A stretch of DNA of 64,000 nucleotides, taken from sequence record NC_031934.1; one strand, written 5' to 3'. The DNA comes from Escherichia phage MX01. A model generated the notes under the pieces. It saw only the letters and a list, made by a program, of their open reading frames with translations. It was not told where the DNA came from and ran no database searches. Position 1 is the stretch's first letter; each line of letters opens with the position of its first letter. This document shows positions 1 through 62,990 of this stretch, one piece after another. The translations under genes were made by a program, and so were the position numbers.

Positions 1-619
1 GGCGCCCTGCTAATGCCACCGCTTCATGGATAGAGTCATGGTCTAGCGTATAAATGGTATCATTAAAGAATGATGATTTGTTTACATCCAATTTAGGATG
101 GGAATAGCTCAACGTTTCTTTTTGACGTTGCAGCATAATTTCCTGGAGCTCTTCGTTCAGGGTGATACCTTTATTACGAAGGTATTTGATGTGGGACATA
201 GTTTTCAGGAAGAAAGGATTATTCTTCAGGAAACGATGAGAGGTTTTGATAGCCAGACAGATATCAGGCGTAGCCCAATAGAAACCTGTAAGACGGTCCT
301 TTTTAATATGATTTTCAGCATATTTCAGGAGACGATAGCTTGAGGTGTAGTCTTCATCTTGGAGCTCACCGGTAATTTCTCGTACATTAGTCAGGGCACG
401 GACGATATAAGCTTCGAAATAGGTTTCTTTACCGTTATGCATACATTTGAAAGCCTGAACATCAGGATTGTCAACGTGTACATGAGCACCGAACATACGT
501 GCTTTAAAGTGGTTCCATGAGCCTTGGTCGGCAATGAAATCCCAATCAGAATTTTCGATATGCTTACTTTCAATCAGACCTGCGTGGTGCAGTGCACGAG
601 AACCAATAACTAACATCAT
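1..619 (-). CDS. hypothetical protein, 3' end beyond window edge; possible nucleotidyltransferase fold
   Basis: Minus-strand frame opens at ATG 617-619 and runs off position 1 without a stop; N-terminus MMLVIGSRAL...DWDFI resembles the GS...DxD pattern of Pol-beta-type nucleotidyltransferases. The track ORFs 98-343(+) and 391-573(-) are in other frames. Confidence 0.4.
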   Translation of the reverse strand, partial: MMLVIGSRALHHAGLIESKHIENSDWDFIADQGSWNHFKARMFGAHVHVDNPDVQAFKCMHNGKETYFEAYIVRALTNVREITGELQDEDYTSSYRLLKYAENHIKKDRLTGFYWATPDICLAIKTSHRFLKNNPFFLKTMSHIKYLRNKGITLNEELQEIMLQRQKETLSYSHPKLDVNKSSFFNDTIYTLDHDSIHEAVALAGR

Positions 620-638
620 AATATTTTCCTCAGTAAAC

Positions 639-878
639 TTAAATTTCAGCAACGTAATCGTTATGCAATTCCCACATATCATCAGAATTATTCTTAATGA
701 TAGGAATTATCTCATTAGAGATTTCTTCTGCATAAGGGTCGTTGATACAGTGGGCATCTTCAAAACGAACACCGTAATCAGACTTCTTATAAGCAAAGCC
801 ATAAATCTTTTTAAACTTGGCACGGGTAATGCGTACCGGTTCATTAGACTTATCGGACATCGGAGCGTAATACCACAT
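639..878 (-). CDS. hypothetical small protein
   Basis: 79-aa ORF; ATG 876-878 preceded by GAGGAGAAC RBS inside the conserved leader cassette. Confidence 0.55.
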   Translation of the reverse strand: MWYYAPMSDKSNEPVRITRAKFKKIYGFAYKKSDYGVRFEDAHCINDPYAEEISNEIIPIIKNNSDDMWELHNDYVAEI

Positions 879-905
879 ATGTTCTCCTCATGTTTGTGTA
901 GGGTA

Positions 906-935
906 ATAGTAACACGTATTTTTAGAGTTGTACAT
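906..935 (-). promoter_or_regulatory. early-type promoter (TGnTACTAT -10, degenerate -35) with conserved leader
   Basis: Minus-strand reading ATGTACAA-N-TGTTACTATTACCCTACACAAACATGAGGAGAAC-ATG; same cassette as at 56468-56497. Confidence 0.4.
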
Positions 936-1251
936 CACTTCTGCAATATTCTAAAAATAATTTATCGTTGTCTACCGTATCCCAACGACGCCAAGATGGA
1001 TTCCAGACCAGAGCGTTGTCACCACAATCATTGAGCTTAAAATGGTCGTAGTACATAGCTATACGTCTAGTTTCGTCACCAGAGAATCCCAGTATAGGCT
1101 CACCATGGGTGTGATACATATGATGGTGCATTGAGAGGTCGCATTTGTAAAACATCTCACGTTTACCGCGAACGAACAAGAAAGCTTGCCCATTCATATA
1201 GAATTCTTTATCTGTTTTCAAAAGATATTTGAATACTGAATCTTTATGCAT
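922..1251 (-). CDS. hypothetical protein with His-rich motif (MHHHMYHTHG)
   Basis: Track ORF 922-1272 uses a non-ATG first codon; internal ATG at 1249-1251 has a GGAGG RBS. Confidence 0.5.
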   Translation of the reverse strand: MHKDSVFKYLLKTDKEFYMNGQAFLFVRGKREMFYKCDLSMHHHMYHTHGEPILGFSGDETRRIAMYYDHFKLNDCGDNALVWNPSWRRWDTVDNDKLFLEYCRSDVQL

Positions 1252-1281
1252 AAGTCCTCCTACCACATCCATGTGGTTAAA

Positions 1282-1509
1282 TTATTTTCCTAACGAAATA
1301 CGAGTAGGTTTTTTACCGAAATAGTCTTCATAAGAACCATCTAAACGACCTGCTTTAGACCGACAATATGAATCGTACTTTTTGTAATAAGTCATCTCAG
1401 TATTATAACGCGGGTGTCTATCAGCCATAATAATACTTAACGGCCAACCTTTGGCATAATCGCGAAGACCATTTATTTTACGAATGTATCTTTTCTTTAA
1501 TTTTAGCAT
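1282..1509 (-). CDS. hypothetical basic small protein
   Basis: 75-aa ORF; ATG overlaps upstream stop (ATGCTAA), suggesting translational coupling. Confidence 0.5.
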   Translation of the reverse strand: MLKLKKRYIRKINGLRDYAKGWPLSIIMADRHPRYNTEMTYYKKYDSYCRSKAGRLDGSYEDYFGKKPTRISLGK

Positions 1510-1727
1510 GAGCTCGGATACCAGATTTTACCATCGGCCTGAGCAACGAAGGTGCGTCCAGCTTCTTCGCCATAACACGAGCTATTCAGCCAATCTTCGA
1601 GACGAACTTCACCGTCATAATCGTCGAGCTCAACACCAAAACTTTGAGCAGAAGCCATATCTTTTACTTTCTTATACAGTGCAGCCAGTTCAAGTGCAGC
1701 TTTTTCTAATTCATTAATATCAGACAT
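1503..1727 (-). CDS. small acidic protein, W-x-S-S-C C-terminal family member 1
   Basis: 74 aa; RBS AAGGTGA; C-terminus ...DGKIWYPSSC. Confidence 0.6.
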   Translation of the reverse strand: MSDINELEKAALELAALYKKVKDMASAQSFGVELDDYDGEVRLEDWLNSSCYGEEAGRTFVAQADGKIWYPSSC

Positions 1728-1738
1728 TTTTTATCACC

Positions 1739-1951
1739 TTAGCAAGACATAGAGGATGTAAACCAGAAACCTTCACCTTCCGGAATACCGTAGTCATCAC
1801 GGACCCATTCGTAATCATCATATTCCGGGTTCTTTGGAGAAATGTATTCTCCACGACCAGAAACACGGAACTCTTCACCCGTTTCGTCAGCCACGGCCTG
1901 GCCTTTACGTACTAATTCGCGGATTTGTTTTTCAATTTCATCAATAGTCAT
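1739..1951 (-). CDS. small acidic protein, W-x-S-S-x-x-C family member 2
   Basis: 70 aa; RBS AAGGAAA; C-terminus ...GEGFWFTSSMSC. Confidence 0.6.
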   Translation of the reverse strand: MTIDEIEKQIRELVRKGQAVADETGEEFRVSGRGEYISPKNPEYDDYEWVRDDYGIPEGEGFWFTSSMSC

Positions 1952-1960
1952 TTTATTTCC

Positions 1961-2242
1961 TTAACATTCAGAAGAAGAGGACACCCATCCACCATTTTCT
2001 AGGCTGGTAGTGTAATCATGTTGGTTTACAATAGCGTACTGAGCTTCACCGTATTCTTCCCAGTGGGCAAGGTCGGCTTTCAAGGCGCCAGGAGAATAAT
2101 AGTCACCGCCCATACCGCGAGCAGGGTATATATTAAAATGAGTCTCATATTTGTTTGCAATTTCCTCAGCACGACGAATAGCTTTATGGATATCATTTAC
2201 TGCTTCAGCCAGCTCTTTATTTTTACGGCAATCATTCATCAT
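1961..2242 (-). CDS. small acidic protein, W-x-S-S-x-x-C family member 3
   Basis: 93 aa; RBS AAGGAAA; C-terminus ...ENGGWVSSSSEC; shares IANKY..F and GDYYSPG motifs with member 4. Confidence 0.6.
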   Translation of the reverse strand: MMNDCRKNKELAEAVNDIHKAIRRAEEIANKYETHFNIYPARGMGGDYYSPGALKADLAHWEEYGEAQYAIVNQHDYTTSLENGGWVSSSSEC

Positions 2243-2251
2243 AGCGTTTCC

Positions 2252-2542
2252 TTAGCACATTGCTGAAGAGGAGACCCAAGCACCAACTGTAACGACGCCG
2301 TTTTCAACTTCACCGCCGTTGTTTTCAATTTCATCTTTAAACCACTGGGAGCATTCATAGCCGATAGGATAATATGTACGTCCTGAACCATAATCACCGG
2401 TACCGAATTGGATACCATACTTATCGGCAATAGCTTCACATTCATGTTCGATGGTATTCGCTTTATTCAGAAGAGCATAGATAGCCTTTTCTGCAGATTT
2501 CTCGTCATTGTGTTCCGGGATTTCGATTTCAATTTTATTCAT
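2252..2542 (-). CDS. small acidic protein, W-x-S-S-x-x-C family member 4
   Basis: 96 aa; C-terminus ...VGAWVSSSAMC; start overlaps upstream stop (ATGA). Confidence 0.6.
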   Translation of the reverse strand: MNKIEIEIPEHNDEKSAEKAIYALLNKANTIEHECEAIADKYGIQFGTGDYGSGRTYYPIGYECSQWFKDEIENNGGEVENGVVTVGAWVSSSAMC

Positions 2543-2892
2543 GATTTACATTCCTTAATAAAGGTTTCAAGGTCATTACGTTTAGTTTGTTTTACATACT
2601 CATTATAATTAGCCATAGCTAAAGCATATCTCTTTTTACGTGGCTTGTTTATTTTATTAGTTTGGGCAATATCAAAGACCCATGGGATAAAAAATCCTAT
2701 TAAAGCCGGAACCCAAATCCATGCAAGGCTCATATCTTCAAACGGATGGCGAGGCATACCATTAATAATCCCACCGACAAGAAATCCAATTATCCCTGCA
2801 GTCATACTAGTAGCAATGCCGAGGAATAAGGAAATAGCTATATCATAATCTGCTAATGCGTAACCAGGGTCGGTTTTACTAGGCTTATGCAT
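2539..2892 (-). CDS. small membrane protein (two predicted TM helices)
   Basis: Track ORF 2539-3066 overlaps the upstream gene; internal ATG 2890-2892 has an AGAGG RBS and sits just after the upstream stop; hydrophobic stretches LFLGIATSMTAGIIGFLVGGII and LAWIWVPALIGFFIPWVF. Confidence 0.5.
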   Translation of the reverse strand: MHKPSKTDPGYALADYDIAISLFLGIATSMTAGIIGFLVGGIINGMPRHPFEDMSLAWIWVPALIGFFIPWVFDIAQTNKINKPRKKRYALAMANYNEYVKQTKRNDLETFIKECKS

Positions 2893-3421
2893 TTTGAACC
2901 TCTTTAGCGTATTCGCGGCATTCAGCAATAAAACGATTAAGCTTCCGTTGTTGTTTTCGAATCTCTGATGTATACTCATTAGCCAAAATAATAAGCTCGT
3001 CTTTATCGTAATTTTTAATATCCGAATAACTCGGGCGGCGGTCGACCATACCAAAGTGGTCACCATTTTCTAACATCAAATAGCATACTAAATGGTAATC
3101 ATCGTCAGCATCAACAAGCTGTTTACAATCACTTGGTTCATTTAAAGCGTATACTGAATAGCATAATCCAGCGAATTCCACTCGTTGAATACCTAGATTT
3201 AAGTCAATAATTTCTAAAGCTTCTGCAAAAGAAAGGTCCTCAGCTAAAGCAAAGATAAAAGGTAATTTGGTAGTATCGCCACGGCTAGATGTTCTGCTTA
3301 AGAAATCGTTTGAATAGCCTAGGTCTTGGCGAATTCTATAAAGAACTGAATTGGTTTCATGGGAAAGACCACTATTTTTAAACCAATCAATATTTGATAT
3401 AAGGTTATCATATAAACTCAT
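2885..3421 (-). CDS. hypothetical protein
   Basis: 178-aa ORF; ATG 3419-3421 with GGAGGAGAGGAG RBS region. Confidence 0.55.
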   Translation of the reverse strand: MSLYDNLISNIDWFKNSGLSHETNSVLYRIRQDLGYSNDFLSRTSSRGDTTKLPFIFALAEDLSFAEALEIIDLNLGIQRVEFAGLCYSVYALNEPSDCKQLVDADDDYHLVCYLMLENGDHFGMVDRRPSYSDIKNYDKDELIILANEYTSEIRKQQRKLNRFIAECREYAKEVQNA

Positions 3422-3444
3422 AATATTCTCCTCTCCTCCAAATA

Positions 3445-3462
3445 GGGAGACCGAAGTCTCCC
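3445..3462 (-). terminator. intergenic stem-loop GGGAGAC-UUCG-GUCUCCC
   Basis: 18-nt hairpin identical (reverse orientation) to the gene 23 terminator hairpin at 41579-41596; lies between two minus-strand genes. Confidence 0.35.
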
Positions 3463-3469
3463 GGTAACA

Positions 3470-4063
3470 TTACTTAAGTGAATTAATGTAGTCTTCGATA
3501 TCAGCAGAAGTCGTATCCATTCCAACTTGTGGGCCTTTAAACGTTTCTACACGCAGTAGGGTGTCTTCAATATCAATCTTAGTCAGTGCAGCGATTTCAA
3601 CAACATCATCGGCAGTAGCAATACCAAGGGCAGCCATATTACGAGTTTCACGGATGTACTCGAGCTTAACAGCCAGTTCCTGACGAGAGTCATCAAGTTC
3701 CTTAACCTTCAGTTTAATTTCATTACGCATTTCGATATAATCATCGGCTTTCTTACGAAGCTGAGTAGCTGTACGACGATAAAGGAGACCGAGTTTAGCA
3801 TGTACCTGGACATCAGAGCCTTCGGCAATCAGTTTACGAATTTCACGTTCTTTAGAAGCAGCGAGCTGGTCTTTTTCATTAGCCAAAGCACGAATACGTT
3901 TTTCTTCATTCACAGACTTAACATGAGCCGTCTGGAGTTCAGTGATTTTATCAATCAGGGTAGAAGCAGCTTTGGTGTATTGGTCTTCGATTGACAGGTT
4001 CTGAGCCATCGCGGTACCCAGTTTAGAACGGATGAATTCAACGATTTTCTTTAAAGTGTTCAT
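3470..4063 (-). CDS. coiled-coil-rich hypothetical protein
   Basis: 197-aa ORF, heptad-like charged repeats throughout; RBS GAAGGAAA. Confidence 0.55.
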
Positions 4064-4105
4064 AGTATTTCCTTCAGTTGATTAAGATTTATAATCCATG
4101 AGGAC

Positions 4106-4135
4106 ATTATACCCTGTCCTCTGAGGTTTGTAAAC
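4106..4135 (-). promoter_or_regulatory. sigma70-type promoter GTTTACA-N18-TATAAT
   Basis: Minus-strand reading GTTTACAAACCTCAGAGGACAGGGTATAAT upstream of the 4063 start. Confidence 0.4.
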
Positions 4136-4138
4136 ATT

Positions 4139-4537
4139 TTATTTCATTTTTGCGAGGCAAATTTCATTGGCTTCCCATTGAGCTTGCTTAATAATAGCTT
4201 TGGATACAGGAGCCCTTTGGCCATAAGTTTTTGACGTTGAGAGAACAATACATTTGTTTGCCTCATTATGCCATCCCCATGATTTTTCGCCATGAGTACC
4301 TTTAACTACAGCAGACACCTCAACAGAGCAACCACCATCAGAAATCTTGGTTTCGACAACCCATTCATTTCTCTCAGCAGCTTCAATTTCTAATCTAGTT
4401 TTTTCTTCATACATCGCGGCCCAATCAGTTTTTGCCAAGTTGAAAGTAAGAGCTTTCTCTAGTTCTTTGGCATATTTTTGTTGTTCAGGTGTTAATGAAT
4501 TATACAACTCTTGCATTTCTTTATCTTCGATATTCAT
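4139..4537 (-). CDS. hypothetical protein
   Basis: 132-aa ORF; RBS GAGGAGAAC before ATG 4535-4537. Confidence 0.55.
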   Translation of the reverse strand: MNIEDKEMQELYNSLTPEQQKYAKELEKALTFNLAKTDWAAMYEEKTRLEIEAAERNEWVVETKISDGGCSVEVSAVVKGTHGEKSWGWHNEANKCIVLSTSKTYGQRAPVSKAIIKQAQWEANEICLAKMK

Positions 4538-4562
4538 TATGTTCTCCTCAAATTATGGGCTC

Positions 4563-4592
4563 ATAATATCTTAATCATGAGCCCATGTAAAC
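4563..4592 (-). promoter_or_regulatory. sigma70-type promoter GTTTACA-N-TATTAT embedded in a 10-bp inverted repeat
   Basis: Minus-strand reading GTTTACATGGGCTCATGATTAAGATATTAT; inverted repeat ATGGGCTCAT (4555-4564) / ATGAGCCCAT (4577-4586). Confidence 0.4.
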
Positions 4593-4595
4593 GTT

Positions 4596-4859
4596 TTATT
4601 TCATATTATTGAAATAATTTTCTGCATCAAAATCATTACCATGGTAAACTTTGGTAGACGATTTGGCGTAACCTTCAGCTGAGAACATATTAATCACAAC
4701 TTTAATTGTATACCACTGTCCATCTTCATTACCCATTACTGCATAGGTTTCATACACCGGGTGTTCAGGACCGATAACTTTAATATCGTTAACAGTAGCA
4801 CCAAATTCTTCAGGGACGCATTTCATAAAGAAATTAAACACTTCACCATAATTATCCAT
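4596..4859 (-). CDS. hypothetical protein
   Basis: Track ORF starts at GTG 4872-4874; ATG 4857-4859 with GAAGGAGAG RBS preferred. Confidence 0.5.
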   Translation of the reverse strand: MDNYGEVFNFFMKCVPEEFGATVNDIKVIGPEHPVYETYAVMGNEDGQWYTIKVVINMFSAEGYAKSSTKVYHGNDFDAENYFNNMK

Positions 4860-4894
4860 TTTACTCTCCTTCACACTGTTGTTTTGATAGGTCT

Positions 4895-4923
4895 ATAGTA
4901 TCATGTTCTACGAAAGAGTAAAC
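4895..4923 (-). promoter_or_regulatory. early-type promoter GTTTAC-N17-TGaTACTAT
   Basis: Minus-strand reading GTTTACTCTTTCGTAGAACATGATACTATAGACCTATCAAAAC. Confidence 0.45.
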
Positions 4924-4945
4924 ATCTTTTTTAAACTTTTTAGAA

Positions 4946-4976
4946 ACAAAAAAAGGCCCAACCTTTCGGAAGGGCC
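4946..4976 (-). terminator. intrinsic terminator (hairpin GGCCC...GGGCC followed by U-run on the minus strand), copy 1 of 3
   Basis: aaaaaaaaGGCCCAACCTTTCGGAAGGGCC; identical to copies at 5572-5599 and 48035-48063. Confidence 0.6.
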
Positions 4977-4981
4977 TAGAA

Positions 4982-5536
4982 TCAGTTCCTGTAGAACCGG
5001 AATGGGTTTATGTGGAAGGCTAACATAGCCTTAGGGATTTTACGAGACAAAAGACTCTTAAGTTTCCAACCACAGTATACACGAAGGTAAAAGGTAATCC
5101 CACCTACTTTAAGATACGGAACTGAAGCAAAGACTCCCCATGCTTCGTCATTCCACATCCATAACCATCCATGATGAGCTTTATCAGGAGAACCGGATTC
5201 AACGTCAGGATTACCACGATAATGGAATTCTGAGCTACAATCGCGTCCAAGTTTATGGTAAGCAAAGTTATAAGCTTTATTTCGCCACAGCCAAGCTACT
5301 CTCTGGAGATAAACACCGCCAGGCATTTTCCTGATTTTAGCCCAACGTTTAATATGGCCTTTGTCACCGTCAATTGGATTATCGTATGTCATCATCCAAT
5401 CAAAGCCATAAGGCAATTTACCGGTCTTTTTATTATGAAAAGGGACTACAAAAGGTGCAAGGATAACAGCCAGAACCATAGAGATAAAATCTAGAGGGAC
5501 CAACAGTACCCAACTCAAATATTTTAAAAGTTTCAT
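4982..5536 (-). CDS. hypothetical Trp-rich protein with N-terminal transmembrane segment
   Basis: 184-aa ORF; N-terminal hydrophobic stretch LSWVLLVPLDFISMVLAVILAPFVVPF; AGGAAA RBS; late promoter upstream. Confidence 0.55.
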   Translation of the reverse strand: MKLLKYLSWVLLVPLDFISMVLAVILAPFVVPFHNKKTGKLPYGFDWMMTYDNPIDGDKGHIKRWAKIRKMPGGVYLQRVAWLWRNKAYNFAYHKLGRDCSSEFHYRGNPDVESGSPDKAHHGWLWMWNDEAWGVFASVPYLKVGGITFYLRVYCGWKLKSLLSRKIPKAMLAFHINPFRFYRN

Positions 5537-5562
5537 ATTATTTCCTAAGTTAGTTTACTACA

Positions 5563-5570
5563 TATTTATA
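5563..5570 (-). promoter_or_regulatory. T4-type late promoter TATAAATA
   Basis: Plus-strand tatttata = TATAAATA on the minus strand, 26 nt upstream of ATG 5536. Confidence 0.5.
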
Positions 5571-5571
5571 C

Positions 5572-5599
5572 AAAAAAGGCCCAACCTTTCGGAAGGGCC
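5572..5599 (-). terminator. intrinsic terminator, copy 2 of 3
   Basis: aaaaaaGGCCCAACCTTTCGGAAGGGCC; ends the tRNA/stable-RNA transcription unit. Confidence 0.6.
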
Positions 5600-5835
5600 T
5601 TTAACCTAGGGTAACCTTGTCGGGGTTCCACCTGCTAGGCAAGTGTTCGGTGCGCCGTTTCTGCTGTGATATAAGGGGACATTAACGAATCGTAAAGATT
5701 TATTAATGCCGGTCCTTAAACAGGGAACATCAGTCCGACGACTTACCGGTAGCGACCCGGTTTCTTGTTTGTTGCGCCGGTGAATGCTGGTAATCAGTCT
5801 TCATACGACGGCTTGACTATATAATAGTCTTCATT
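5600..5835 (-). ncRNA. ORF-free structured region downstream of tRNA-Arg; candidate small stable RNA(s)
   Basis: About 235 nt with no ORF, GC-rich inverted repeats (e.g. CCGGTAGCGACCCGG), between tRNA-Arg and a terminator; T4 encodes stable RNAs beside its tRNA cluster. Confidence 0.25.
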
Positions 5836-5910
5836 TGGTATCCCGCCCTGGGATCGAACCAGGACCGCAAACTTAGAAGGATCGTATGCTATCCATTACA
5901 CCAGCGGGAC
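5836..5910 (-). tRNA. tRNA-Arg (anticodon TCT)
   Basis: Minus-strand reading GTCCCGCTGGTGTAATGGATAGCATACGATCCTTCTAAGTTTGCGGTCCTGGTTCGATCCCAGGGCGGGATACCA; cloverleaf with TTCGATC T-loop, anticodon loop CTTCTAA, encoded CCA. Confidence 0.85.
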
Positions 5911-5915
5911 ATAGT

Positions 5916-5992
5916 TGGTGACCCGGACCAGATTTGAACTGGTAACCTTTCCCTTATGAGGGGACTGCTGCTAACCATTGAGCTACGGGGCC
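5916..5992 (-). tRNA. tRNA with CAT anticodon (Met, or Ile via lysidine)
   Basis: Minus-strand reading GGCCCCGTAGCTCAATGGTTAGCAGCAGTCCCCTCATAAGGGAAAGGTTACCAGTTCAAATCTGGTCCGGGTCACCA; T-arm ACCAG-TTCAAAT-CTGGT, anticodon loop CTCATAA; one acceptor-stem mismatch. Confidence 0.7.
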
Positions 5993-5997
5993 TTAAT

Positions 5998-6264
5998 TTA
6001 AATTACAAATCCAGCGGGAGCATTATCATCTTTAGCCATGTGCTGAATTGTATGATAAGTCATTTCTTCAGGAGCAACCAGATAAGCCGCCGCGTTAACT
6101 AGTGGAATTATTTTCGGTTTAGCGAATGTGCTATCGGCAATTGCCATAAAGGGCTCGCCATCAGTCTCAACTTCGCCAAATTGGCATTCATATGAAATAG
6201 AACAACGTTTGGTAGTTGTTGTCTTGGTTTCCGGGTCATAAAAAGCTAATTTTAATACTAACAT
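5998..6264 (-). CDS. hypothetical protein
   Basis: ATG 6262-6264 with GAGGTG RBS; ends 6 nt upstream of the tRNA. Confidence 0.5.
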   Translation of the reverse strand: MLVLKLAFYDPETKTTTTKRCSISYECQFGEVETDGEPFMAIADSTFAKPKIIPLVNAAAYLVAPEEMTYHTIQHMAKDDNAPAGFVI

Positions 6265-6438
6265 AAACACCTCAAATAAAATTAAGTAAAGTAAGTTTGA
6301 TTAATAGACCTTGTCTATTATGAAAGGCTCTTTGAGGGAAGAACCTTTGGTAATAGAGGGTATTAATGATAGAGTAATAATAACACATTACTCTTAAAGC
6401 ATATTACTATTTTTAGGAATAGTCTGGCCAAATTTGAT

Positions 6439-6729
6439 TCATTGTGGCCACATATTAATGTAATCAAGTTTAATAGAAGCAATCTTCAAAGGATTTTTAA
6501 AGATGTCGTATTCGATCAATCCGTTTTCAGTTGCGGTGTAGAAAGTAAAGTTAACAGAATTATAACGGCGACCATTAACTTTTAGTTTAACGTCGCTTGA
6601 ACTACGACCAATATTAACCTGTTGGACATCAAGCACAGCACCTTTGCCAAAGTTGCGAATCAGTAGCTCTGCTGCAACCTGGTCCGAATTATAGCCATTC
6701 TCTGGATTAGTAACCTTAACGTATAGCAT
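6439..6729 (-). CDS. hypothetical protein
   Basis: 96-aa ORF; RBS GAGGG; start abuts upstream stop. Confidence 0.5.
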   Translation of the reverse strand: MLYVKVTNPENGYNSDQVAAELLIRNFGKGAVLDVQQVNIGRSSSDVKLKVNGRRYNSVNFTFYTATENGLIEYDIFKNPLKIASIKLDYINMWPQ

Positions 6730-56113: not shown

Positions 56114-56120
56114 CAAAAAA

Positions 56121-56146
56121 GGAGAGCATATGCTCTCCTTTAGGGG
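56121..56146. terminator. bidirectional intrinsic terminator after gene 54
   Basis: aaaaaaGGAGAGCA-TA-TGCTCTCC-TTTAGGGGGTTT. Confidence 0.65.
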
Positions 56147-56148
56147 GT

Positions 56149-56439
56149 TTATTTACGGAACGAAATGAAACCTGCTGCAGTCATTAATGGTTGCTTTTTA
56201 ACAAACACTGTGACTGAAATAGGAGCTTCAGATTCAAGCTGACCAGTCACTACACCATTAAAGATATTTTCAGTTTGTTCTGGATGAGAAAAATTCTCAA
56301 CAGGTCGGATATCAAACTGTTTGTCTTCACCGAAAACTCGACGTAATTCATTACCTACGGCACTGTCAAACACTTCAGAAGCAGGGATAACGTTTTCAAC
56401 TACCAGTTCTTGACCATTAAAACGGAATGCAGATTTCAT
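56149..56439 (-). CDS. hypothetical protein
   Basis: 96 aa; ATG 56437-56439 with GAGGAGAAC RBS in the conserved leader. Confidence 0.5.
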   Translation of the reverse strand: MKSAFRFNGQELVVENVIPASEVFDSAVGNELRRVFGEDKQFDIRPVENFSHPEQTENIFNGVVTGQLESEAPISVTVFVKKQPLMTAAGFISFRK

Positions 56440-56467: not shown

Positions 56468-56497
56468 ATAGTACCACATCCTTGTGGTGTTGTAAAC
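56468..56497 (-). promoter_or_regulatory. early-type promoter GTTTACA-N18-TGgTACTAT with conserved leader
   Basis: Minus-strand reading GTTTACAACACCACAAGGATGTGGTACTATTACCTTACACAAACATGAGGAGAAC; -35 overlaps the stop of the upstream alt paralog. Confidence 0.45.
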
Positions 56498-58620
56498 TAC
56501 ATTTTGAATTTATTTGATAAAGAAGAGATGTCCAAAGATGCAGCAAGGATTTCCATAGCTTCGTTGCTTTCAGAAACGGATTCATTAACCAAGAATTGAC
56601 TGAATCCATCCATCAGGCGAACTTCACCAGTTTCCATCAAATGGTCACCATCGTAAACAGATTCGCTGAGCTCTGAAGGAGGTGTTACGGTAGCTTCCAT
56701 AAGGTATTTGTGAGATACTCTATCATTCATGGCAAAAGCTGCTACTTTATCAACCTTCAACAATAATCCACGCGGAAGGATAATTTCTGCTTCTTCGGCA
56801 TATTCTGTAAGGTCACCAGGAGCGATAACTTTAACTGCTTCAGCACCTCGAATAACCATACCAATTTCAGCAATTCTATCTGCAGGACCTTCAGGTGCAA
56901 TTGGATTACCAAACTCGTCTTCTTCCCATTCTACCTCTTCATCATCGACTTCACCCACATCAGATGAACTACCGCTAGCCAATTTAAACAACTCATCAGC
57001 GGAGGATAAAGAACCTTCACCACCAACAAAAACGGCTTGGTTGTCGAGGGCCATATAATTTTTACCAAATTCGCCAAAGATGTTAGGCTTTAATGAGGCT
57101 GACACAAAGTTCTTAAAGTAAAATGTTTTGTTATCGATATTATGACGCAGAATTTTGTATGGCAAATCCTGACCACGATACAAAATAGTACCCTTAGGAA
57201 GTTTAATACCCTTAGTAAATGCTGAGTCTAAATCCTTAATCAATTTAATAGCCGTTGTATTGTTTTCGGATTCAGGTTTACCTAAAAGGAACAAGTTCAT
57301 AGGAGCATATTCAGCTGCGCAATATTCAATAATAGCATTGCTTTCGTCTTTGGTTAGGCCCTTAGGTTTAATGAGCTCACCTGAATAAGCATATGCATCA
57401 CTAATAGAATCGTTAATTAGTTTATAAACGGCTTCCATAGCGAAAGCAATTCGGGATGCTTTCTCTGAAGGGGAGCCTTTAAAACGGGTACTCAGGTTAT
57501 TAACAATTTTCTTAATAATATCCAGACTATTGGTTGTATTGATTTGCGAAAGGCCACTTAAAAGTCTATCGACTTCTGTATTAAAAAATGCCATATTATT
57601 AGAGTAAATTTCAAACCCTTGTTTATCTCTATTAGCATAATTTAGTTTAAATTTACTATCAGTCATTAAAGCGTGTGTGAGAGCAATAGTGTATCTAAAG
57701 TTGGCAAGGTCCTCGCTCTTAGATTTAAACTGAGAAGCCTGGCGCATTTTGGTAATAGCACCTTTTTTAAAGTTCTGACTAATCTGTTCAATACCTTCGT
57801 TCTCAGGGCCTTCAGCCGTGTGAACCGGTACAGAAGCTTCAAACTCGTTATAAACCTGCAATTCTTTAGGGGACAAAGTTTCAGGCTCAGCAGTAGAATA
57901 CTGCGCCGCCGCTGCCATACGACGCGAAATCTTAGTACGAGTAATGACAGCCTTATCAGTACGTTTCTCTTCAACTTGTGCAATAGATGCCGCTACGGCT
58001 TCGACCTTACTTACGGCCTGGCCGGTTTTCTTAGAAACATACACTTCGCCAACTTTAGACTCAACTTTAGTATAAAGATCGGCATTAATTTCAGGCATAC
58101 CCTTGATATCTTCAATATTAGCACCACGACGTACTAAAAGAACGTAGGTATGTTTTCCGCTGAATTGGAACATGTCGTCAACAACTTTAAACTTACCACC
58201 GGTACGAGCCATAGCCAAGCGAGCTAATACGCGCTGAACGGTAGGACCTTTACCTTTCATTTTCTTAGTAGGGAAACGGAACAAAACCGCGTCCATTTTA
58301 AGTTTGTTTATTTGTTCATATATGGTATCGAAAATGGTGTTCAGTGTACCGAGTGGATCGGTACCCAAACCACCCTTGAGTTCTGCCGGAGCGCCTTTAG
58401 CAGATAAACTCATTAAGATAACATGGACGTACTTATCACCCGGCTTAACCATTTTAATAGCATCGCCTTCAGACGCGTATGAAACCATACGCGCTACTAA
58501 ATTGTCATTACCAGGAGCATGGACCGCAAAAATCTGCGGTACGCCCGAGCCAGGTTTAAGATTTGTTACTGGGTAATTTTTTTTATCGCTTTTATCAAAA
58601 ACTTCGTTTAAATTTTCCAT
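56497..58620 (-). CDS. alt: Alt-like ADP-ribosyltransferase paralog 3
   Basis: 707 aa; conserved N-terminal 230 aa; C-terminal R-S-ExE pattern (ILYRGQ, FYFKNFVSASL, EAEIILPRG). Confidence 0.8.
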   Translation of the reverse strand: MENLNEVFDKSDKKNYPVTNLKPGSGVPQIFAVHAPGNDNLVARMVSYASEGDAIKMVKPGDKYVHVILMSLSAKGAPAELKGGLGTDPLGTLNTIFDTIYEQINKLKMDAVLFRFPTKKMKGKGPTVQRVLARLAMARTGGKFKVVDDMFQFSGKHTYVLLVRRGANIEDIKGMPEINADLYTKVESKVGEVYVSKKTGQAVSKVEAVAASIAQVEEKRTDKAVITRTKISRRMAAAAQYSTAEPETLSPKELQVYNEFEASVPVHTAEGPENEGIEQISQNFKKGAITKMRQASQFKSKSEDLANFRYTIALTHALMTDSKFKLNYANRDKQGFEIYSNNMAFFNTEVDRLLSGLSQINTTNSLDIIKKIVNNLSTRFKGSPSEKASRIAFAMEAVYKLINDSISDAYAYSGELIKPKGLTKDESNAIIEYCAAEYAPMNLFLLGKPESENNTTAIKLIKDLDSAFTKGIKLPKGTILYRGQDLPYKILRHNIDNKTFYFKNFVSASLKPNIFGEFGKNYMALDNQAVFVGGEGSLSSADELFKLASGSSSDVGEVDDEEVEWEEDEFGNPIAPEGPADRIAEIGMVIRGAEAVKVIAPGDLTEYAEEAEIILPRGLLLKVDKVAAFAMNDRVSHKYLMEATVTPPSELSESVYDGDHLMETGEVRLMDGFSQFLVNESVSESNEAMEILAASLDISSLSNKFKM

Positions 58621-58623
58621 TAT

Positions 58624-60669
58624 TTACCCTTGGATGAATTTTTCTGGGATTTCGTCAAAATTAATACATGAAGCTAAAATAGGCATTATATCCACCTTGG
58701 TCGATTTGACAAATGAATCAAAAGACACAGGGTTGTCGGTCTCTGTTTCTACACCTTGGTAAACAACCAATTCGCCTGTTTCCATCAATGCATCGCCATC
58801 ATAGATAACCGCATTTTCTGCTAGTTGGTCTGTGGTCTGGATATCTGCTTCCAATAATTTGGTGTTGTAGTTTCCTTTATATGAGGCATCAGTAATTTTA
58901 GTAATCTTAACTGTAGTTCCACGTGGAAGAATAACCTCTTGTTCTGTTGGAGAACCTGACAATTCACCAGGCATAATTACGTTAATAGAGTCTGCACCAG
59001 AAATTTTCCAGCCGATGTTCATCATTGTATTTTCGGAACTCGTCAGCATACTTGGAAGAACAATTTCATTATCGCCTTGGAAAGATGTCCCAGCGCGATA
59101 GTCTTGATGTACTGCTGCCATTGCGACGTTTGATACCCAGCCGCCAAAGATAATTGGCTTAAGGGACGTTGATACATAGTTCCTGAAATAAAACAATTTT
59201 GAGTGTTTGATTTTATCAAAAGTGTTAACATTTAAATATTGCCCACGCCAAAGTGTAATATCAGGTGGCAATTTATGGCCAATTTCAAATGCCGCATCCA
59301 TATCGTTAATTACTTCAATTACACGCTGGCTATCAATGAATTCTGCATCCTCTTCATAATAATTACCCAACAAATAATTATTAACATCGGTATAATATTG
59401 GCCACAATAAGAAGAAATAGCCTCACGCTGCTCATACTCAAATCGATTATCGCTATAACCGGCTGTAAAATGCATAAGACTTTCTGATGCTTCATTAGCA
59501 AAGTCGGTAACAGCAGCACTTATACGTTGAGCATACTCTTGTTCCCAAAGCTCTGCTGCATATTCTGACGCATCCATATTAGGAGGGGCCTCATTCACTT
59601 TTCTTTCGATAAATGCAGCTTTGCGAAGGTTAAGAATCTCTGCACATGATTCGGCAAAAATCTGCATCTGCTTCATACTGCCAACAGGAGCACGTTTAAG
59701 TTCACGATGCATACGGTTAAAAATTGGGTCAGAGTCTTCGACTCGAATTTCTTCTTTCCAAACACCATTTGCTCGCATAGCCGTATCTGCCGCGCGCATA
59801 CGGTCCATAGTATTCGTTTCAGAAGGTCGAACAAAAATTTCTAGTTCTTCATAATCATCGATAAGTTCTGCCGTAGCCGGTCGACTAAACTTAGCAGCTT
59901 CTGCATCAATTTCGTCCCAACCTTCCGGAACTTCATCTCGAGGAGAATACTGGGCTGCGGCCACAGCACGCCTAGAAATCTTGGTAGTAGTAATAACAGC
60001 CTTATCCGTACGTTTTTCTTCGACTGCCGCTATACTAGCAGATAGTGCTTCTATTTTGGTTACTGATTGGCCGGTTTTCTTAGAAACATAAACCTCACCA
60101 ACTTTAGACTCAACCTTAGTGTAAAGGTCTGCATCAATTTCAGGCATACCTTTTATGTCCTCAATATTAGCTTGTTTACGAACCAGTAAAACGTATGTAT
60201 GTTTGCCTGTAAATTGATACATATCATCGACAACTTTAAACTTGCCGCCAGTACGAGCCATCGCCAAACGTGCCAATACACGTTGAACAGTAGGACCCTT
60301 ACCTTTCATTTTCTTGGTAGGGAAGCGGAAAAGAACTGCATCCATTTTAAGTTTATTTACCTGTTCATATACCGTATCGAAAATGGTATTCAATGTACCA
60401 AATGGGTCAGAACCTAACCCACCTTTCAACTCGGCTGGGGTACCCTTAGCAGACAAACTCATTAGAATAACGTGGACATATTTGTCGCCTGGCTTAACCA
60501 TTTTAATAGCGTCTCCTTGAGACGCATAAGATACCATACGAGCAACCAAGTTATCATTACCTGGTGCTTGGATAGAGAAAATCTGTGGAATACCGGAACC
60601 TGGTTTAAGATTTATTACTGGATAGTTTTTAGCGGAATCACTATCAAAAACTTCGTTTAAATTTTCCAT
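58624..60669 (-). CDS. alt: Alt-like ADP-ribosyltransferase paralog 2
   Basis: 681 aa; same N-terminal module; ITLWRGQ, FYFRNYVSTSL, EQEVILPRG. Confidence 0.8.
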   Translation of the reverse strand: MENLNEVFDSDSAKNYPVINLKPGSGIPQIFSIQAPGNDNLVARMVSYASQGDAIKMVKPGDKYVHVILMSLSAKGTPAELKGGLGSDPFGTLNTIFDTVYEQVNKLKMDAVLFRFPTKKMKGKGPTVQRVLARLAMARTGGKFKVVDDMYQFTGKHTYVLLVRKQANIEDIKGMPEIDADLYTKVESKVGEVYVSKKTGQSVTKIEALSASIAAVEEKRTDKAVITTTKISRRAVAAAQYSPRDEVPEGWDEIDAEAAKFSRPATAELIDDYEELEIFVRPSETNTMDRMRAADTAMRANGVWKEEIRVEDSDPIFNRMHRELKRAPVGSMKQMQIFAESCAEILNLRKAAFIERKVNEAPPNMDASEYAAELWEQEYAQRISAAVTDFANEASESLMHFTAGYSDNRFEYEQREAISSYCGQYYTDVNNYLLGNYYEEDAEFIDSQRVIEVINDMDAAFEIGHKLPPDITLWRGQYLNVNTFDKIKHSKLFYFRNYVSTSLKPIIFGGWVSNVAMAAVHQDYRAGTSFQGDNEIVLPSMLTSSENTMMNIGWKISGADSINVIMPGELSGSPTEQEVILPRGTTVKITKITDASYKGNYNTKLLEADIQTTDQLAENAVIYDGDALMETGELVVYQGVETETDNPVSFDSFVKSTKVDIMPILASCINFDEIPEKFIQG

Positions 60670-60672
60670 TAT

Positions 60673-62757
60673 TTACCCTTGGATGAATTTTTCTGGGATG
60701 TCATAGAGGTCTATGCATGAAGCCAAAAGAGACAGCACATCAACCCGTGTAGATTTAACAAATGAATCAAAAGATACAGGGCTTTCGGAAGTATCGAAAT
60801 CATCTTGATATACGACCAACTCGCCGGTTTCCATTAGTACGTCACCATCATACACCACAGATTCTTGAAGCTCATCTGTTGTCATAACTTCGGCTTGGAT
60901 GAGTTTTGTATTATTAGATGTTGTTCCATCATTATTAGAAGCATCTGTTATTTTATTAACTTTGACCATTAATCCACGTGGTAGAATAACTTCAGCTTCA
61001 GTTGCTATTCCGAGATTTCCTGGATATACAACATTAACTTTATGAGCCCCATCAATCGCCCATCCTATTTGAACTTTAACGTATTCAGGATTTTCTTTAT
61101 ATGCTCTTATTTCATTAGGATTGATAGTTATTCCTTCTTCATTTTTATCGACTGTCAATTCATTGCGAACTTCAGGTTCTAAAAGACCAATACCTGCGTG
61201 GGTAACACCAAAACGTCCGAAAATGATAGGAGTTAATGAAGTAGATACAAAATTTCTAAAATAAAACACTTTATTTTTAACTAGTGCTTCGTATATAGGA
61301 GCAGTCATACTCTGTGCACGATAAACTGTGATGCCTTCTGGTATACGGTCGCCATTTTCAAAAGCAGAATCCAAATTATTAACTGCAGATTCGATATCTT
61401 TTTCACTCATAATCTCATAGTTATGAGGATTGTAACGACCTAAAAGAAGGTTATTTATATCGCCGTATCCAGAGCCACAATATTCTCTGATGCCACGCTT
61501 TTGCGATGGGGTATATTTAGAACCCTCACGAGCAATAGTAATATCAACCATTGAACCACCACCCACACCAGCAAAACTATATACGCGTTTTTTAATGAAT
61601 TTGGTCTTGGCTGCTTTCCACTTGGACTCGGTCAATTCATTCCAGAGGTCATCAGGTTGTCCTTTACGAGTTTTGTTATGCGTAGCCAACCACTCGCCTT
61701 TGTATTCTTCGAAAACGGTATTAATAGCAGAGGCATATTTTTCTAGAGCTTTAACAGATGTCAAAGGTTCGTTTTTGATGGCTGATAGGATTTTCTCTTT
61801 AATTTTCTCTTTGATTTCACCTATACCGTGAAGAGGAAACATTTTATAATCGTAATGCAATTCTTCAGCAGTACCTTCAGCTACTATATTAGCAACCTTA
61901 TTTTTAGCCGCAGGAGAATTGTTATTAGTAACCATTTCCTGGGCCTCAGGGATTAATGGAACTGTTGCCGGTTTATTAAAATCCGCTGCAGTAGCTTCAT
62001 ATTTCTTAAACAATTCACTTTCATTACGATAAGATTCCAATGATTGGCTTGCTGCAATGGCGCGCCTAGAAATCTTAGTCTTGGTTATAACCATTTTATC
62101 AGTGCGACGTTCTTCAACCTTAGCAATACTGCCGGCAATAGCAGTTTCTTTAGTAACCTGCACACCTTCTTTTTTGGAAATATAAACTTCACCGACATCA
62201 GAATCTACCTTAGTATACAATTCAGCATTAATTCCAGGCATACCTTTGATATCTTCGATATCAGCTTGTTTACGGACTACCAGGATGTAAGTATGTTTAC
62301 CGGTAAATTGGTACATAGCCGGAACCACTTTAAAACGTCCACCGGTTTTCTGTGTTACCAAACGTTGGATAATACGTTGAACGATAGGGCCTTGACCTTT
62401 CATTTTCTTGGTAGGAAAACGGAACATCACGGCATCCATACGAAGCTTTTTAACTTGGTCATAAACCACATCAAAAATAGTATTAATCGCATCTACAGGA
62501 GTAGGGCCAAGGCCACCTTTAAGTTCGGCTGGAGTACCTTTAGCTGAAAGGCTCATAAGGATAACGTGGGCATATTTATCACCCATTTTAACTTGTTTAA
62601 TAGCATCACCTTCAGAAGCGTAGGATACCATACGAGCAACTAATTGGGACTCTGCATCGCCAATCTTCCAAATCTGGGGTACTTTAAGTTTTGGGTTCAA
62701 GTTTACTGTAGGCAGAGTGCCTTCGGACTCAAACACTTCATTTAATTGTTCGGTCAT
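60673..62757 (-). CDS. alt: Alt-like ADP-ribosyltransferase paralog 1
   Basis: 694 aa; same N-terminal module (more diverged); ITVYRAQ, FYFRNFVSTSL, EAEVILPRG; AGAGGAA RBS. Confidence 0.8.
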   Translation of the reverse strand: MTEQLNEVFESEGTLPTVNLNPKLKVPQIWKIGDAESQLVARMVSYASEGDAIKQVKMGDKYAHVILMSLSAKGTPAELKGGLGPTPVDAINTIFDVVYDQVKKLRMDAVMFRFPTKKMKGQGPIVQRIIQRLVTQKTGGRFKVVPAMYQFTGKHTYILVVRKQADIEDIKGMPGINAELYTKVDSDVGEVYISKKEGVQVTKETAIAGSIAKVEERRTDKMVITKTKISRRAIAASQSLESYRNESELFKKYEATAADFNKPATVPLIPEAQEMVTNNNSPAAKNKVANIVAEGTAEELHYDYKMFPLHGIGEIKEKIKEKILSAIKNEPLTSVKALEKYASAINTVFEEYKGEWLATHNKTRKGQPDDLWNELTESKWKAAKTKFIKKRVYSFAGVGGGSMVDITIAREGSKYTPSQKRGIREYCGSGYGDINNLLLGRYNPHNYEIMSEKDIESAVNNLDSAFENGDRIPEGITVYRAQSMTAPIYEALVKNKVFYFRNFVSTSLTPIIFGRFGVTHAGIGLLEPEVRNELTVDKNEEGITINPNEIRAYKENPEYVKVQIGWAIDGAHKVNVVYPGNLGIATEAEVILPRGLMVKVNKITDASNNDGTTSNNTKLIQAEVMTTDELQESVVYDGDVLMETGELVVYQDDFDTSESPVSFDSFVKSTRVDVLSLLASCIDLYDIPEKFIQG

Positions 62758-62779
62758 AATAATTCCTCTTTAATAACCT

Positions 62780-62787
62780 TATTTATG
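62780..62787 (-). promoter_or_regulatory. late-promoter-like CATAAATA upstream of the alt array
   Basis: Plus-strand tatttatg = CATAAATA on minus (7 of 8 vs TATAAATA), 23 nt before ATG 62757. Confidence 0.35.
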
Positions 62788-62790
62788 CCA

Positions 62791-62810
62791 GAAAAGGCCC
62801 GAAGGCCTTA
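62791..62810 (-). terminator. intrinsic terminator after the gene 30 operon
   Basis: Minus-strand reading GGCC-UUCG-GGCC followed by UUUUC. Confidence 0.5.
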
Positions 62811-62990
62811 AAGTGGTAGCAACGTACGGTATACTTCAAATTTAGGACCCTTTTCATAGCGGTCGAAATTATCTTTAAAATCAGCGAATGCGATTTCATT
62901 TTCAAATTCAAGGACAATTTGGGACACTGCAGTGGAGACATCCCCACCTTCTTTATATCCAATAACCACGGTTTCTAAATAAGCTTTCAT
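62808..62990 (-). CDS. hypothetical small protein downstream of ligase
   Basis: Track ORF 62808-63032 overlaps the ligase 3' end; ATG 62988-62990 lies 1 nt after the ligase stop; no clear RBS. Confidence 0.35.
   Translation of the reverse strand: MKAYLETVVIGYKEGGDVSTAVSQIVLEFENEIAFADFKDNFDRYEKGPKFEVYRTLLPL

Follow-up and report, generated by a model that had tools for sequence, protein, structure and literature searches.

Three mosaic Alt-family ADP-ribosyltransferase genes in tandem at the alt locus of Escherichia phage MX01

Introduction

Why should a locus that holds a single gene in phage T4 hold three in a relative, and do the three encode different enzymes or spare copies of one? The question is raised by a 64,000-nucleotide (nt) stretch of Escherichia phage MX01 (NC_031934.1; the window, to which positions refer unless another record is named), in which three open reading frames (ORFs) of the minus strand, named here alt1, alt2 and alt3 in order from the ligase side, lie where T4 carries alt. 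T4 Alt is a textbook example of a protein that is packed in the phage head, injected with the DNA and used to ADP-ribosylate host proteins, and it is also known to act against MazF of a toxin–antitoxin system; to our knowledge, the T4 version is the only one that has been studied. The enzyme is an NAD+–arginine ADP-ribosyltransferase (ART; UniProt P12726), and targets, including Arg265 of the RNA polymerase alpha subunit, are known for T4 Alt only (PMC8120803).

Here, the three genes are read as an operon-like array of functional arginine-type mono-ADP-ribosyltransferases of the Alt family, and a probability of about three in four is attached to this reading as a whole, which takes in expression, a delivery frame, a payload, a T4-like cycle and an origin by recombination. 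It is built on observations of the array, which concern the ORFs, their family, motifs and fold, the mosaic history of each gene, conserved signals and purifying selection.

Family membership, catalytic motifs and selection

By each feature of the Alt family that can be tested on a sequence, all three genes can be assigned to it. The PHROG 802 (Alt) profile matches every protein from residue 1 to the end (E = 1e-249 to 1e-263), and Pfam PF03496 (ADPrib_exo_Tox) is matched by alt1 (E = 9e-36), alt2 (E = 2e-21) and alt3 (E = 4e-17, in two stretches); in precomputed Pfam assignments, homologues carry PF03496 together with PF26846, an Alt-specific N-terminal domain. A sequence search of the PDB with alt1 and a search of NCBIfam with alt1, alt2 and alt3 returned no match.

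A preliminary description of the locus, made from the letters alone, had proposed a C-terminal region with the R / S-T-S / E-x-E hallmarks of ARTs, which is borne out by the profile matches and by an intact motif in each copy: R480 (VYRAQ), S505-T-S507 and E587-A-E589 in alt1; R475 (LWRGQ), S500-T-S502 and E576-Q-E578 in alt2; and R482 (LYRGQ), S507-A-S509 and E610-A-E612 in alt3, whose middle motif is thus SAS. An ExE motif is characteristic of those ARTs that are specific for arginine (PMC8120803), and S500, E576 and E578 of alt2 are invariant in an alignment of 123 homologues. The domain search that had been proposed for each paralogue found an ART domain in all of them, to which a fold match can be added for alt2. 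The AlphaFold (AF2) model of this protein (predicted local distance difference test score, pLDDT, 81) has three parts, an N domain of alpha/beta type, a centre made up entirely of helices and the ART domain, the last of which matches Vis, C3 (C3bot), Certhrax, iota, CDTa and VIP2 with a Foldseek probability of 1.0 (E = 9e-8 to 8e-6; template-modelling score to the target up to 0.64; identity ~15–18%).

All three genes are under purifying selection. The ratios of non-synonymous to synonymous substitution rates (dN/dS) against the orthologues of phage QL01 are 0.07 for alt1, 0.09 for alt2 and 0.08 for alt3, and 0.02 for the ART domain and tail of alt3 (residue 411 to the end). These values bear on a rival explanation, according to which one or two of the copies are mainly structural parts of the prohead core, or inactive pseudo-enzymes, kept for a role of the conserved frame in head assembly. 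Alt has been described as a core protein of T4 besides being an enzyme (PMC11404850), and a structural role would suit alt3 with its SAS in place of STS and its acidic insertion; yet the arginine, the first serine and both glutamates are intact in all three, the ratio of 0.02 falls on the catalytic part of alt3 itself, and Alt is dispensable for T4 assembly (PMC9026906, PMC5694885). A mainly structural or inactive copy is thus regarded as very unlikely.

Frame and cassette

The genes have a common four-part anatomy, consisting of an N module, a helical centre, an ART domain and a C-terminal tail (Table 1), and the parts differ widely in how far they are conserved among the paralogues. In the N module (residues ~1–240), amino acid (aa) identity is 88% between alt2 and alt3, 70% between alt1 and alt2, and 67% between alt1 and alt3, and nt identity among the three is 72–86%. 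The corresponding aa values, in the same order of pairs, are 13%, 19% and 9% in the centre (~240–410), 34%, 41% and 38% in the ART domain (~406–630), and 30%, 67% and 25% in the tail (last 54–63 residues). The isoelectric point (pI) is ~9.6 for the basic N module and ~4.1 for the acidic tails. The conserved N-terminal region of about 230 aa that had been reported does exist, extends over ~238–240 aa and is indeed more diverged in alt1, but to call it near-identical in alt2 and alt3 was slightly generous, given 88% aa identity. Likewise, the central regions, which had been called unique, are divergent (9–19% identity), but those of alt1 and alt2 are remote homologues (hhalign probability 98.5%, E = 2e-15); that of alt3 has no detectable relation to either (hhalign probability ~1%). 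The fourth module, the propeptide-like tail, which is similar in alt1 and alt2 and different in alt3, had been overlooked.

The end modules, that is, the N module of ~240 aa and the C-terminal tail, are most alike among paralogues of the same genus, while the cassettes made up of the centre and the ART domain group across genera; each of the three genes is a mosaic. Compared with alta of the Dhakavirus phage JS98, alt1 is 97% identical at the aa level in the N module and 94% in the tail, but 35% in the centre and 62% in the ART domain; compared with the first Alt of phage T2, the values are 46% (N), 65% (centre), 94% (ART) and 46% (tail). Its N module is 45–46% identical to those of T2 and T4, and its ART domain 65% identical to that of T4 Alt. 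At the nt level, alt1 is 80–97% identical to the T2 gene over codons ~390–613, rising to 90–97% over codons ~464–613, and 39–78% identical to JS98 alta over codons 241–600. Pairwise alignment, which had been suggested as a way of locating recombination boundaries, places the switches of partner near codons ~225–255 and ~614–630, the second of which essentially coincides with the C-terminal cleavage site, aligned with LTE-619 of T4. Because the window is only 54–66% identical to T2 at the aa level (60–66% at the nt level) in gp48, gp54, alt.-3 and ligase, the 94% identity of the ART domains is therefore read as a recent exchange of the cassette between genera, with Tequatrovirus as the other party.

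The other two genes combine their parts in different ways. In alt2, the N module is 91% identical to that of JS98 altb, and comparison with the only Alt of phage VR7 (Gaprivervirus) gives 39% in the N module, 86% in the centre, 77% in the ART domain and 52% in the tail, with 82–94% nt identity over codons 239–345. In alt3, the centre and ART domain are 98–99% identical to those of JS98 altb and the tail 86%, and the identities to the second Alt of T2 are 44% (N), 47% (centre), 61% (ART) and 59% (tail). Swapping is seen within Tequatrovirus as well, as T4 Alt and the first Alt of T2 have N modules that are 99% identical, centres that are 31% identical and ART domains that are 67% identical. In total, the histories of frame and cassette are discordant in three independent comparisons. 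The N modules are 65–70% identical between the a and b types of Dhakavirus, 67% between those of Tequatrovirus and 37–47% between genera, a likeness within a genome that would be in keeping with gene conversion, or with co-adaptation to partners specific to each genome. The model of frame and cassette with defined breakpoints is what is added here; the array itself had already been annotated.

The divergence of the cassettes also bears on redundancy, in which three functionally equivalent copies would simply raise the Alt activity carried by each virion. A frame and catalytic motifs common to all three agree with such a dosage effect, as does the promiscuity of T4 Alt, for which at least 27 targets are listed (PMC8120803). 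However, the cassettes are only 9–19% identical in the centre and 34–41% in the ART domain, yet each is conserved across genera and held under purifying selection; moreover, the alt3 centre has no detectable homology to the other two, and the computed pI of the mature proteins differs, being 8.9 for alt1, 5.2 for alt2 and 6.5 for alt3. Functional equivalence of the copies is considered unlikely on these grounds, and three enzymes with different payloads remain the preferred reading.

Layout of the array and reality of the three genes

Three adjacent paralogues of 694, 681 and 707 aa had been described, with intergenic spacers of 3 nt, and the ORFs are present exactly so, all on the minus strand, the distance from stop codon to the next ATG being exactly 3 nt at both the alt1/alt2 and the alt2/alt3 junctions. 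The location, described as that of T4 alt between gene 54 and ligase gene 30, is also correct: gp29, gp48, gp54 and alt.-3 flank the array on one side and alt.1 and the DNA ligase on the other, which is the neighbourhood of alt in T4. The name alt.-3 is annotated for the DUF5498 gene in JS98 and VR7, and alt.1 is annotated in JS98 and T2; the alt.1 homologue matches the Pfam family ‘Phage blade’ (PF24647, E = 3e-29) over residues 15–74 of the listed ORF. The phage can be assigned to Dhakavirus, a T4-like group, and its 6.3-kb alt region is 95.6–96.1% identical, over 100% of its length, to those of phages C6, fDHCT2, QL01 and AnYang. Three Alt genes are already annotated in the GenBank records of QL01, C6 and AnYang.

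Tandem paralogues may arise in silico when a repeat is duplicated or mis-joined during assembly, an artefact that had been raised as a possibility, and direct repeats of 286–300 nt do occur in the alt region. These repeats are merely 64–84% identical, however, every ORF is intact and under selection, and the identical array, with genes of equal lengths, is found in at least seven separately sequenced phages (QL01, C6, AnYang, fDHCT2, KIT01 and UGJNEcP3/4). Extra copies made by assembly are excluded, to a probability that is practically nil, because the layout recurs in independent genomes and the internal repeats are so dissimilar; a duplicated or collapsed repeat is excluded because the alt copies are too diverged.

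Table 1. Features of the alt region of phage MX01 (positions in the window; ART, ADP-ribosyltransferase)
Feature	Position	Strand	Description
alt1	60673..62757	minus	694 aa ORF; Alt-family Arg-type ADP-ribosyltransferase; cassette of the T2-first-Alt / T4-Alt lineage
alt1 N module, aa 1-238	62044..62757	minus	predicted propeptide MTEQLNE (cut after its last residue), then basic N domain; Dhakavirus ‘a’ type
alt1 effector cassette, aa 239-632	60862..62043	minus	helical centre and ART domain
alt1 C-terminal tail, aa 633-694 and stop	60673..60861	minus	predicted propeptide after LQE632
alt2	58624..60669	minus	681 aa ORF; Alt-family ART; rare cassette type, also in Gaprivervirus
alt2 N module, aa 1-240	59950..60669	minus	Dhakavirus ‘b’ type
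alt2 effector cassette, aa 241-618	58816..59949	minus	
alt2 C-terminal tail, aa 619-681 and stop	58624..58815	minus	predicted propeptide after LAE618
alt3	56497..58620	minus	707 aa ORF; Alt-family ART; altb / T2-second-Alt lineage
alt3 N module, aa 1-240	57901..58620	minus	Dhakavirus ‘b’ type, first ~75 codons divergent
alt3 effector cassette, aa 241-653	56662..57900	minus	
alt3 C-terminal tail, aa 654-707 and stop	56497..56661	minus	predicted propeptide after LSE653; ..KFKM type
alt1/alt2 junction block, 58 nt	60642..60699	minus	..IPEKFIQG codons, TAA, spacer ATA, ATG GAA AAT TTA AAC GAA..
alt2/alt3 junction block	58593..58650	minus	second copy of the 58-nt block
Shine–Dalgarno AAGAGGA of alt1	62764-62770	minus	after the CATAAATA box
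Late-promoter-like box CATAAATA	62780..62787	minus	upstream of alt1
Hairpin GGCCTTCGGGCC	62796-62807	minus	before the CATAAATA box
alt.1 homologue	62808..62990	minus	60 aa from ATG at 62990; between ligase and alt array
alt.-3 homologue	56149..56439	minus	96 aa, DUF5498, PF17602 E = 2e-34; last gene of the same-strand block
Hairpin terminator	56118-56141	minus	after the alt.-3 homologue

Origin of the third copy and distribution of the family

The third copy can be traced through the N modules of alt2 and alt3, whose resemblance to JS98 altb changes along their length in opposite directions. Over codons 1–75, alt2 is 93–96% identical to altb at the nt level and alt3 73–81%; over codons 150–240, alt3 is 88–96% identical and alt2 70–83%, and alt3 keeps 88–96% from codon 90 on. 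Unequal crossover within the N module of a resident altb thus appears to have brought in alt2, and in the simplest reading the inserted unit would comprise the middle of an N module, the alt2 cassette, an alt1-like tail, a junction and the first ~80–140 codons of another N module.

Copy number varies among relatives, with one alt gene in VR7, two in JS98 and T2, and three in the clade of the window. A different trio is found in the Dhakavirus Salmonella phage vB_SalD_ABTNLS3 (locus 601–6713), where the gene next to the ligase encodes 631 aa, belongs to the SP18-alta type, lacks an aligned C-terminal tail and is followed by genes of the alt1 and alt3 types. In T4 (OL964735, 5056–5441), the products of alt.-1 and alt.-2, downstream of alt, are 96–97% identical in aa to residues 1–116 of the second Alt of T2, with a frameshift; the single-alt state of T4 is therefore derived, T4 being a decayed two-copy phage and alt.-1/alt.-2 the remnant of its second alt.

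Of 50,697 phage records, 1,200 contain the Alt N module, at 1,819 places. Centres of the alt1 type are present in 778 records and those of the alt3 type in 444, and the alt2 type is confined to 45, all of them three-copy Dhakavirus phages or Gaprivervirus. Among 179 sequences, a biased sample, the centre regions form at least 57 clusters at 30% identity. Two or three alt copies are common in T-even phages, and the array is not peculiar to this phage. The names alta and altb are annotated in the GenBank record of JS98 (EF469154); a literature search on multiple alt genes, the Alt proteins of Dhakavirus, the exchange of Alt cassettes and the nature of T4 alt.-1/alt.-2 found nothing relevant.

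Processing and expression signals

The prohead core of T4 contains about 40 copies of Alt, which are ejected with the DNA (PMC9026906). The prohead protease gp21 cleaves the protein after ITE-6 and LTE-619, which takes off 63 C-terminal residues and yields a product of 68.2 kDa (PMC5694885). In the T4 Alt sequence of this analysis, residue 619 is the last of LTE, and the mature mass calculated from it equals the published 68.2 kDa. The residues aligned to ITE-6 are LNE7 in alt1 and LNE6 in both alt2 and alt3, and those aligned to LTE-619 are LQE632, LAE618 and LSE653, respectively, giving predicted mature masses of 69.4, 68.4 and 71.2 kDa; at the level of motifs, processing by gp21 would be expected at both termini. 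As a side note on numbering, the ExE of the T4 record used (OL964735, 3004–5052) is E574-M-E576 and the inactivating mutation is called E577A in PMC11404850, whereas the LTE-619 numbering of PMC5694885 fits exactly.

Upstream of alt1, a hairpin is followed by a box resembling a late promoter and by a Shine–Dalgarno sequence (Table 1), and in T4 the same hairpin and then a perfect TATAAATA, the late-promoter consensus, stand at the equivalent place upstream of alt. Candidate promoters were also seen inside the array. A perfect TATAAATA box lies within alt1 (61452–61459, minus strand; about codon 433, ~780 nt upstream of alt2), and the window as a whole holds 18 such boxes against 7.7 expected. 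A sigma70-like site in the 3' end of alt2 (58685–58712, minus strand; TTGTCA, 16 nt, TATAAT; 11 of 12 positions) is ~65 nt upstream of the alt3 start. Internal promoters were given no weight, since the region holds no more sigma70-like sites (18) than shuffled sequence would lead one to expect (20), and the site in alt2 may be a matter of chance.

The two junctions are embedded in near-copies of one sequence, the longest identical run being 58 nt within flanks of ~80% identity. The last codons of the upstream gene (..CAA GGG TAA) contain AAGGG 6 nt ahead of the next ATG, and the same arrangement of Q-G-stop-3 nt-ATG is present in T2 and JS98, whose last codons give AAGG(G/A), also 6 nt before the ATG. 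Because the last codons supply this element at such a distance, translational coupling across the alt junctions is suggested.

Proposed working of the array and points against it

By analogy with T4, we infer that the array is transcribed late and that its products are packaged, cleaved, injected and enzymatically active, each with targets of its own, which gives the following picture. A single promoter upstream of alt1 would drive late transcription of the array, and translation would be coupled across the 3-nt junctions through the Shine–Dalgarno-like AAGGG. Each product would combine a delivery frame with an interchangeable payload, the helical centre and a C3/VIP2-like ART domain. The frame would consist of an N-terminal propeptide ME(N/Q)LNE, removed after its last residue, an N domain (~230 aa, basic) and, after L-x-E, a C-terminal tail (54–63 aa, acidic). 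As with T4 Alt, all three would be built into the prohead core, trimmed to about 68–71 kDa and ejected with the DNA, after which NAD+ would be used to ADP-ribosylate arginines of host proteins, with differing cassettes leading to differing target sets. Homologous recombination in the conserved frame would let the array grow, shrink and change: the alt1 cassette would be a recent swap with Tequatrovirus, the alt2 cassette, which also occurs in Gaprivervirus, would have come through unequal crossover, and T4 has lost its second copy.

Several points weigh against this picture. It is extrapolated from T4 Alt, to which the proteins are only 42–45% identical in the N module, 10–34% in the centre and 40–65% in the ART domain, and that their targets differ is a reasonable supposition drawn from sequence divergence. 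In alt3, S-A-S takes the place of S-T-S, and a large acidic insertion, GEVDDEEVEWEEDEFG, lies between the STS and ExE motifs of the ART domain. The box upstream of alt1, CATAAATA, fits the consensus TATAAATA at seven of eight positions, the first being C and not T. Finally, the genes flanking alt in VR7 (locus 4281–6332) are 79–85% identical in aa to those of the window, yet the N domain of VR7 Alt is only 39–43% identical to any Dhakavirus N domain. Because the VR7 N module departs in this way from the relatedness of the genomes, co-adaptation of the frame to the capsid is only one possible reason for the discordance between frame and cassette; the frame also appears to have a history of its own, in which deeply divergent types exist.

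The N domain in other contexts

The delivery frame was further considered through its N domain, modelled separately from alt2 (59947–60669, minus strand; pLDDT 86, predicted template-modelling score 0.85). An exhaustive search of representatives among 1.84 billion proteins gave 72 cluster representatives at 50% identity, in which the domain is always N-terminal and almost always accompanied by an ART (a word-indexed protein search with the N domain alone gave just three matches). Pfam searches of the isolated N domains at E ≤ 10 returned only noise (TseB, DUF601, YpM, GlxA), the Pfam copy evidently predating PF26846.

Among viral models in BFVD, a Foldseek search with the N-domain model finds Alt homologues first and then large uncharacterized proteins of unrelated phages (probability 1.0, E = 1e-8 to 1e-4). 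They belong to the Ackermannviridae-like Dickeya phage RC-2014, Erwinia phage phiEa2809 and Shigella phage MK-13, and to Vibrio phages VP-1 and Kuja, Agrobacterium jumbo phage Atu_ph07 and Aeromonas phage phiA8-29; for a few of the proteins, the annotation names a zeta-toxin, cytidine deaminase or ParB/Srx domain. As a lead, these fold-level matches suggest that the N domain may carry payloads other than ARTs. At the level of sequence, the evidence for such payloads is weak, because nearly all atypical representatives show an ART domain (P0179, P0180, P0169 and P0170) or ART-like motifs, and only P0178 is unassigned. Four metagenomic proteins, P0175 (1142 aa), P0178 (541 aa), P0174 (485 aa) and P0177 (347 aa), have the Alt N domain by sequence and no Pfam ART match; degenerate ART-like motifs can be seen by eye in P0174, P0177 and P0175, and the C-terminal 370 aa of P0178 are without assignment.

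Taken further, the T-even alt locus might be a polymorphic locus of injected effectors, in which a frame for head delivery takes up interchangeable cassettes that pass between genera at two fixed breakpoints, one of them the prohead-protease site, with the N fold serving as a general adaptor for virion delivery; this generalization is offered tentatively and is more doubtful than the reading of the array itself. A different role would follow if the N domain were itself an enzyme with a GNAT-like acyltransferase fold, which would turn the proteins into bifunctional effectors instead of a delivery frame with a payload. Such a second activity seems quite improbable, and the division into frame and payload is kept.

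Significance

In T4, the locus is reduced to one gene; commonly, two or three different enzymes are encoded there. Should their targets differ, phages of this group would deliver a tailored cocktail of host-modifying enzymes at infection, which could affect host takeover, neutralize toxin–antitoxin systems or other defences, and matter when Dhakavirus phages are selected for therapy. From the clean boundaries between frame and cassette, a natural design rule also suggests itself by which T4-type heads might be loaded with foreign enzymes. No major concept is changed, and the three-gene array was already present in GenBank annotations.

Comparison with known systems

The closest system is T4 Alt, which has the same locus, four-part architecture and R-S-ExE residues, two gp21 sites with which the L-x-E motifs of the array align, and the same upstream hairpin, followed by a late-promoter box where the window has the late-promoter-like CATAAATA; it differs in consisting of one gene instead of three, the second T4 copy being reduced to the alt.-1/alt.-2 fragments. 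At about 96% nt identity, the full set of three genes is found again in QL01, C6 and AnYang. The Dhakavirus phages with alta and altb, JS98, JS10 and IME08, represent another arrangement: JS98-type phages lack alt2, altb of JS98 corresponds to alt3, and its alta combines the frame of alt1 (97% and 94%) with another cassette (35% and 62%).

Outside the phages, the ART domain, as modelled for alt2, has the R-S-E type fold of the C3, Vis, VIP2 and iota clade. Those toxins are delivered by secretion or through a binary toxin pore, whereas Alt would be delivered by ejection from the phage head and has additional N and centre domains. Bacterial polymorphic toxin loci resemble the array in the way they work only, in that variable payloads, exchanged by recombination, are attached to a conserved part that serves delivery; the payload of alt, in contrast, has so far almost always been an ART, and no cognate immunity genes lie between the alt genes, where the 3-nt spacers leave no room. 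A likeness in working is also offered by the internal proteins of T4 with a capsid-targeting sequence, in which a conserved targeting part is present and the N-terminal propeptide is cut off by gp21 (PMC9026906, PMC5694885); while that targeting sequence is 10 aa long, the conserved part of Alt is a folded domain of ~230 aa together with a C-terminal tail.

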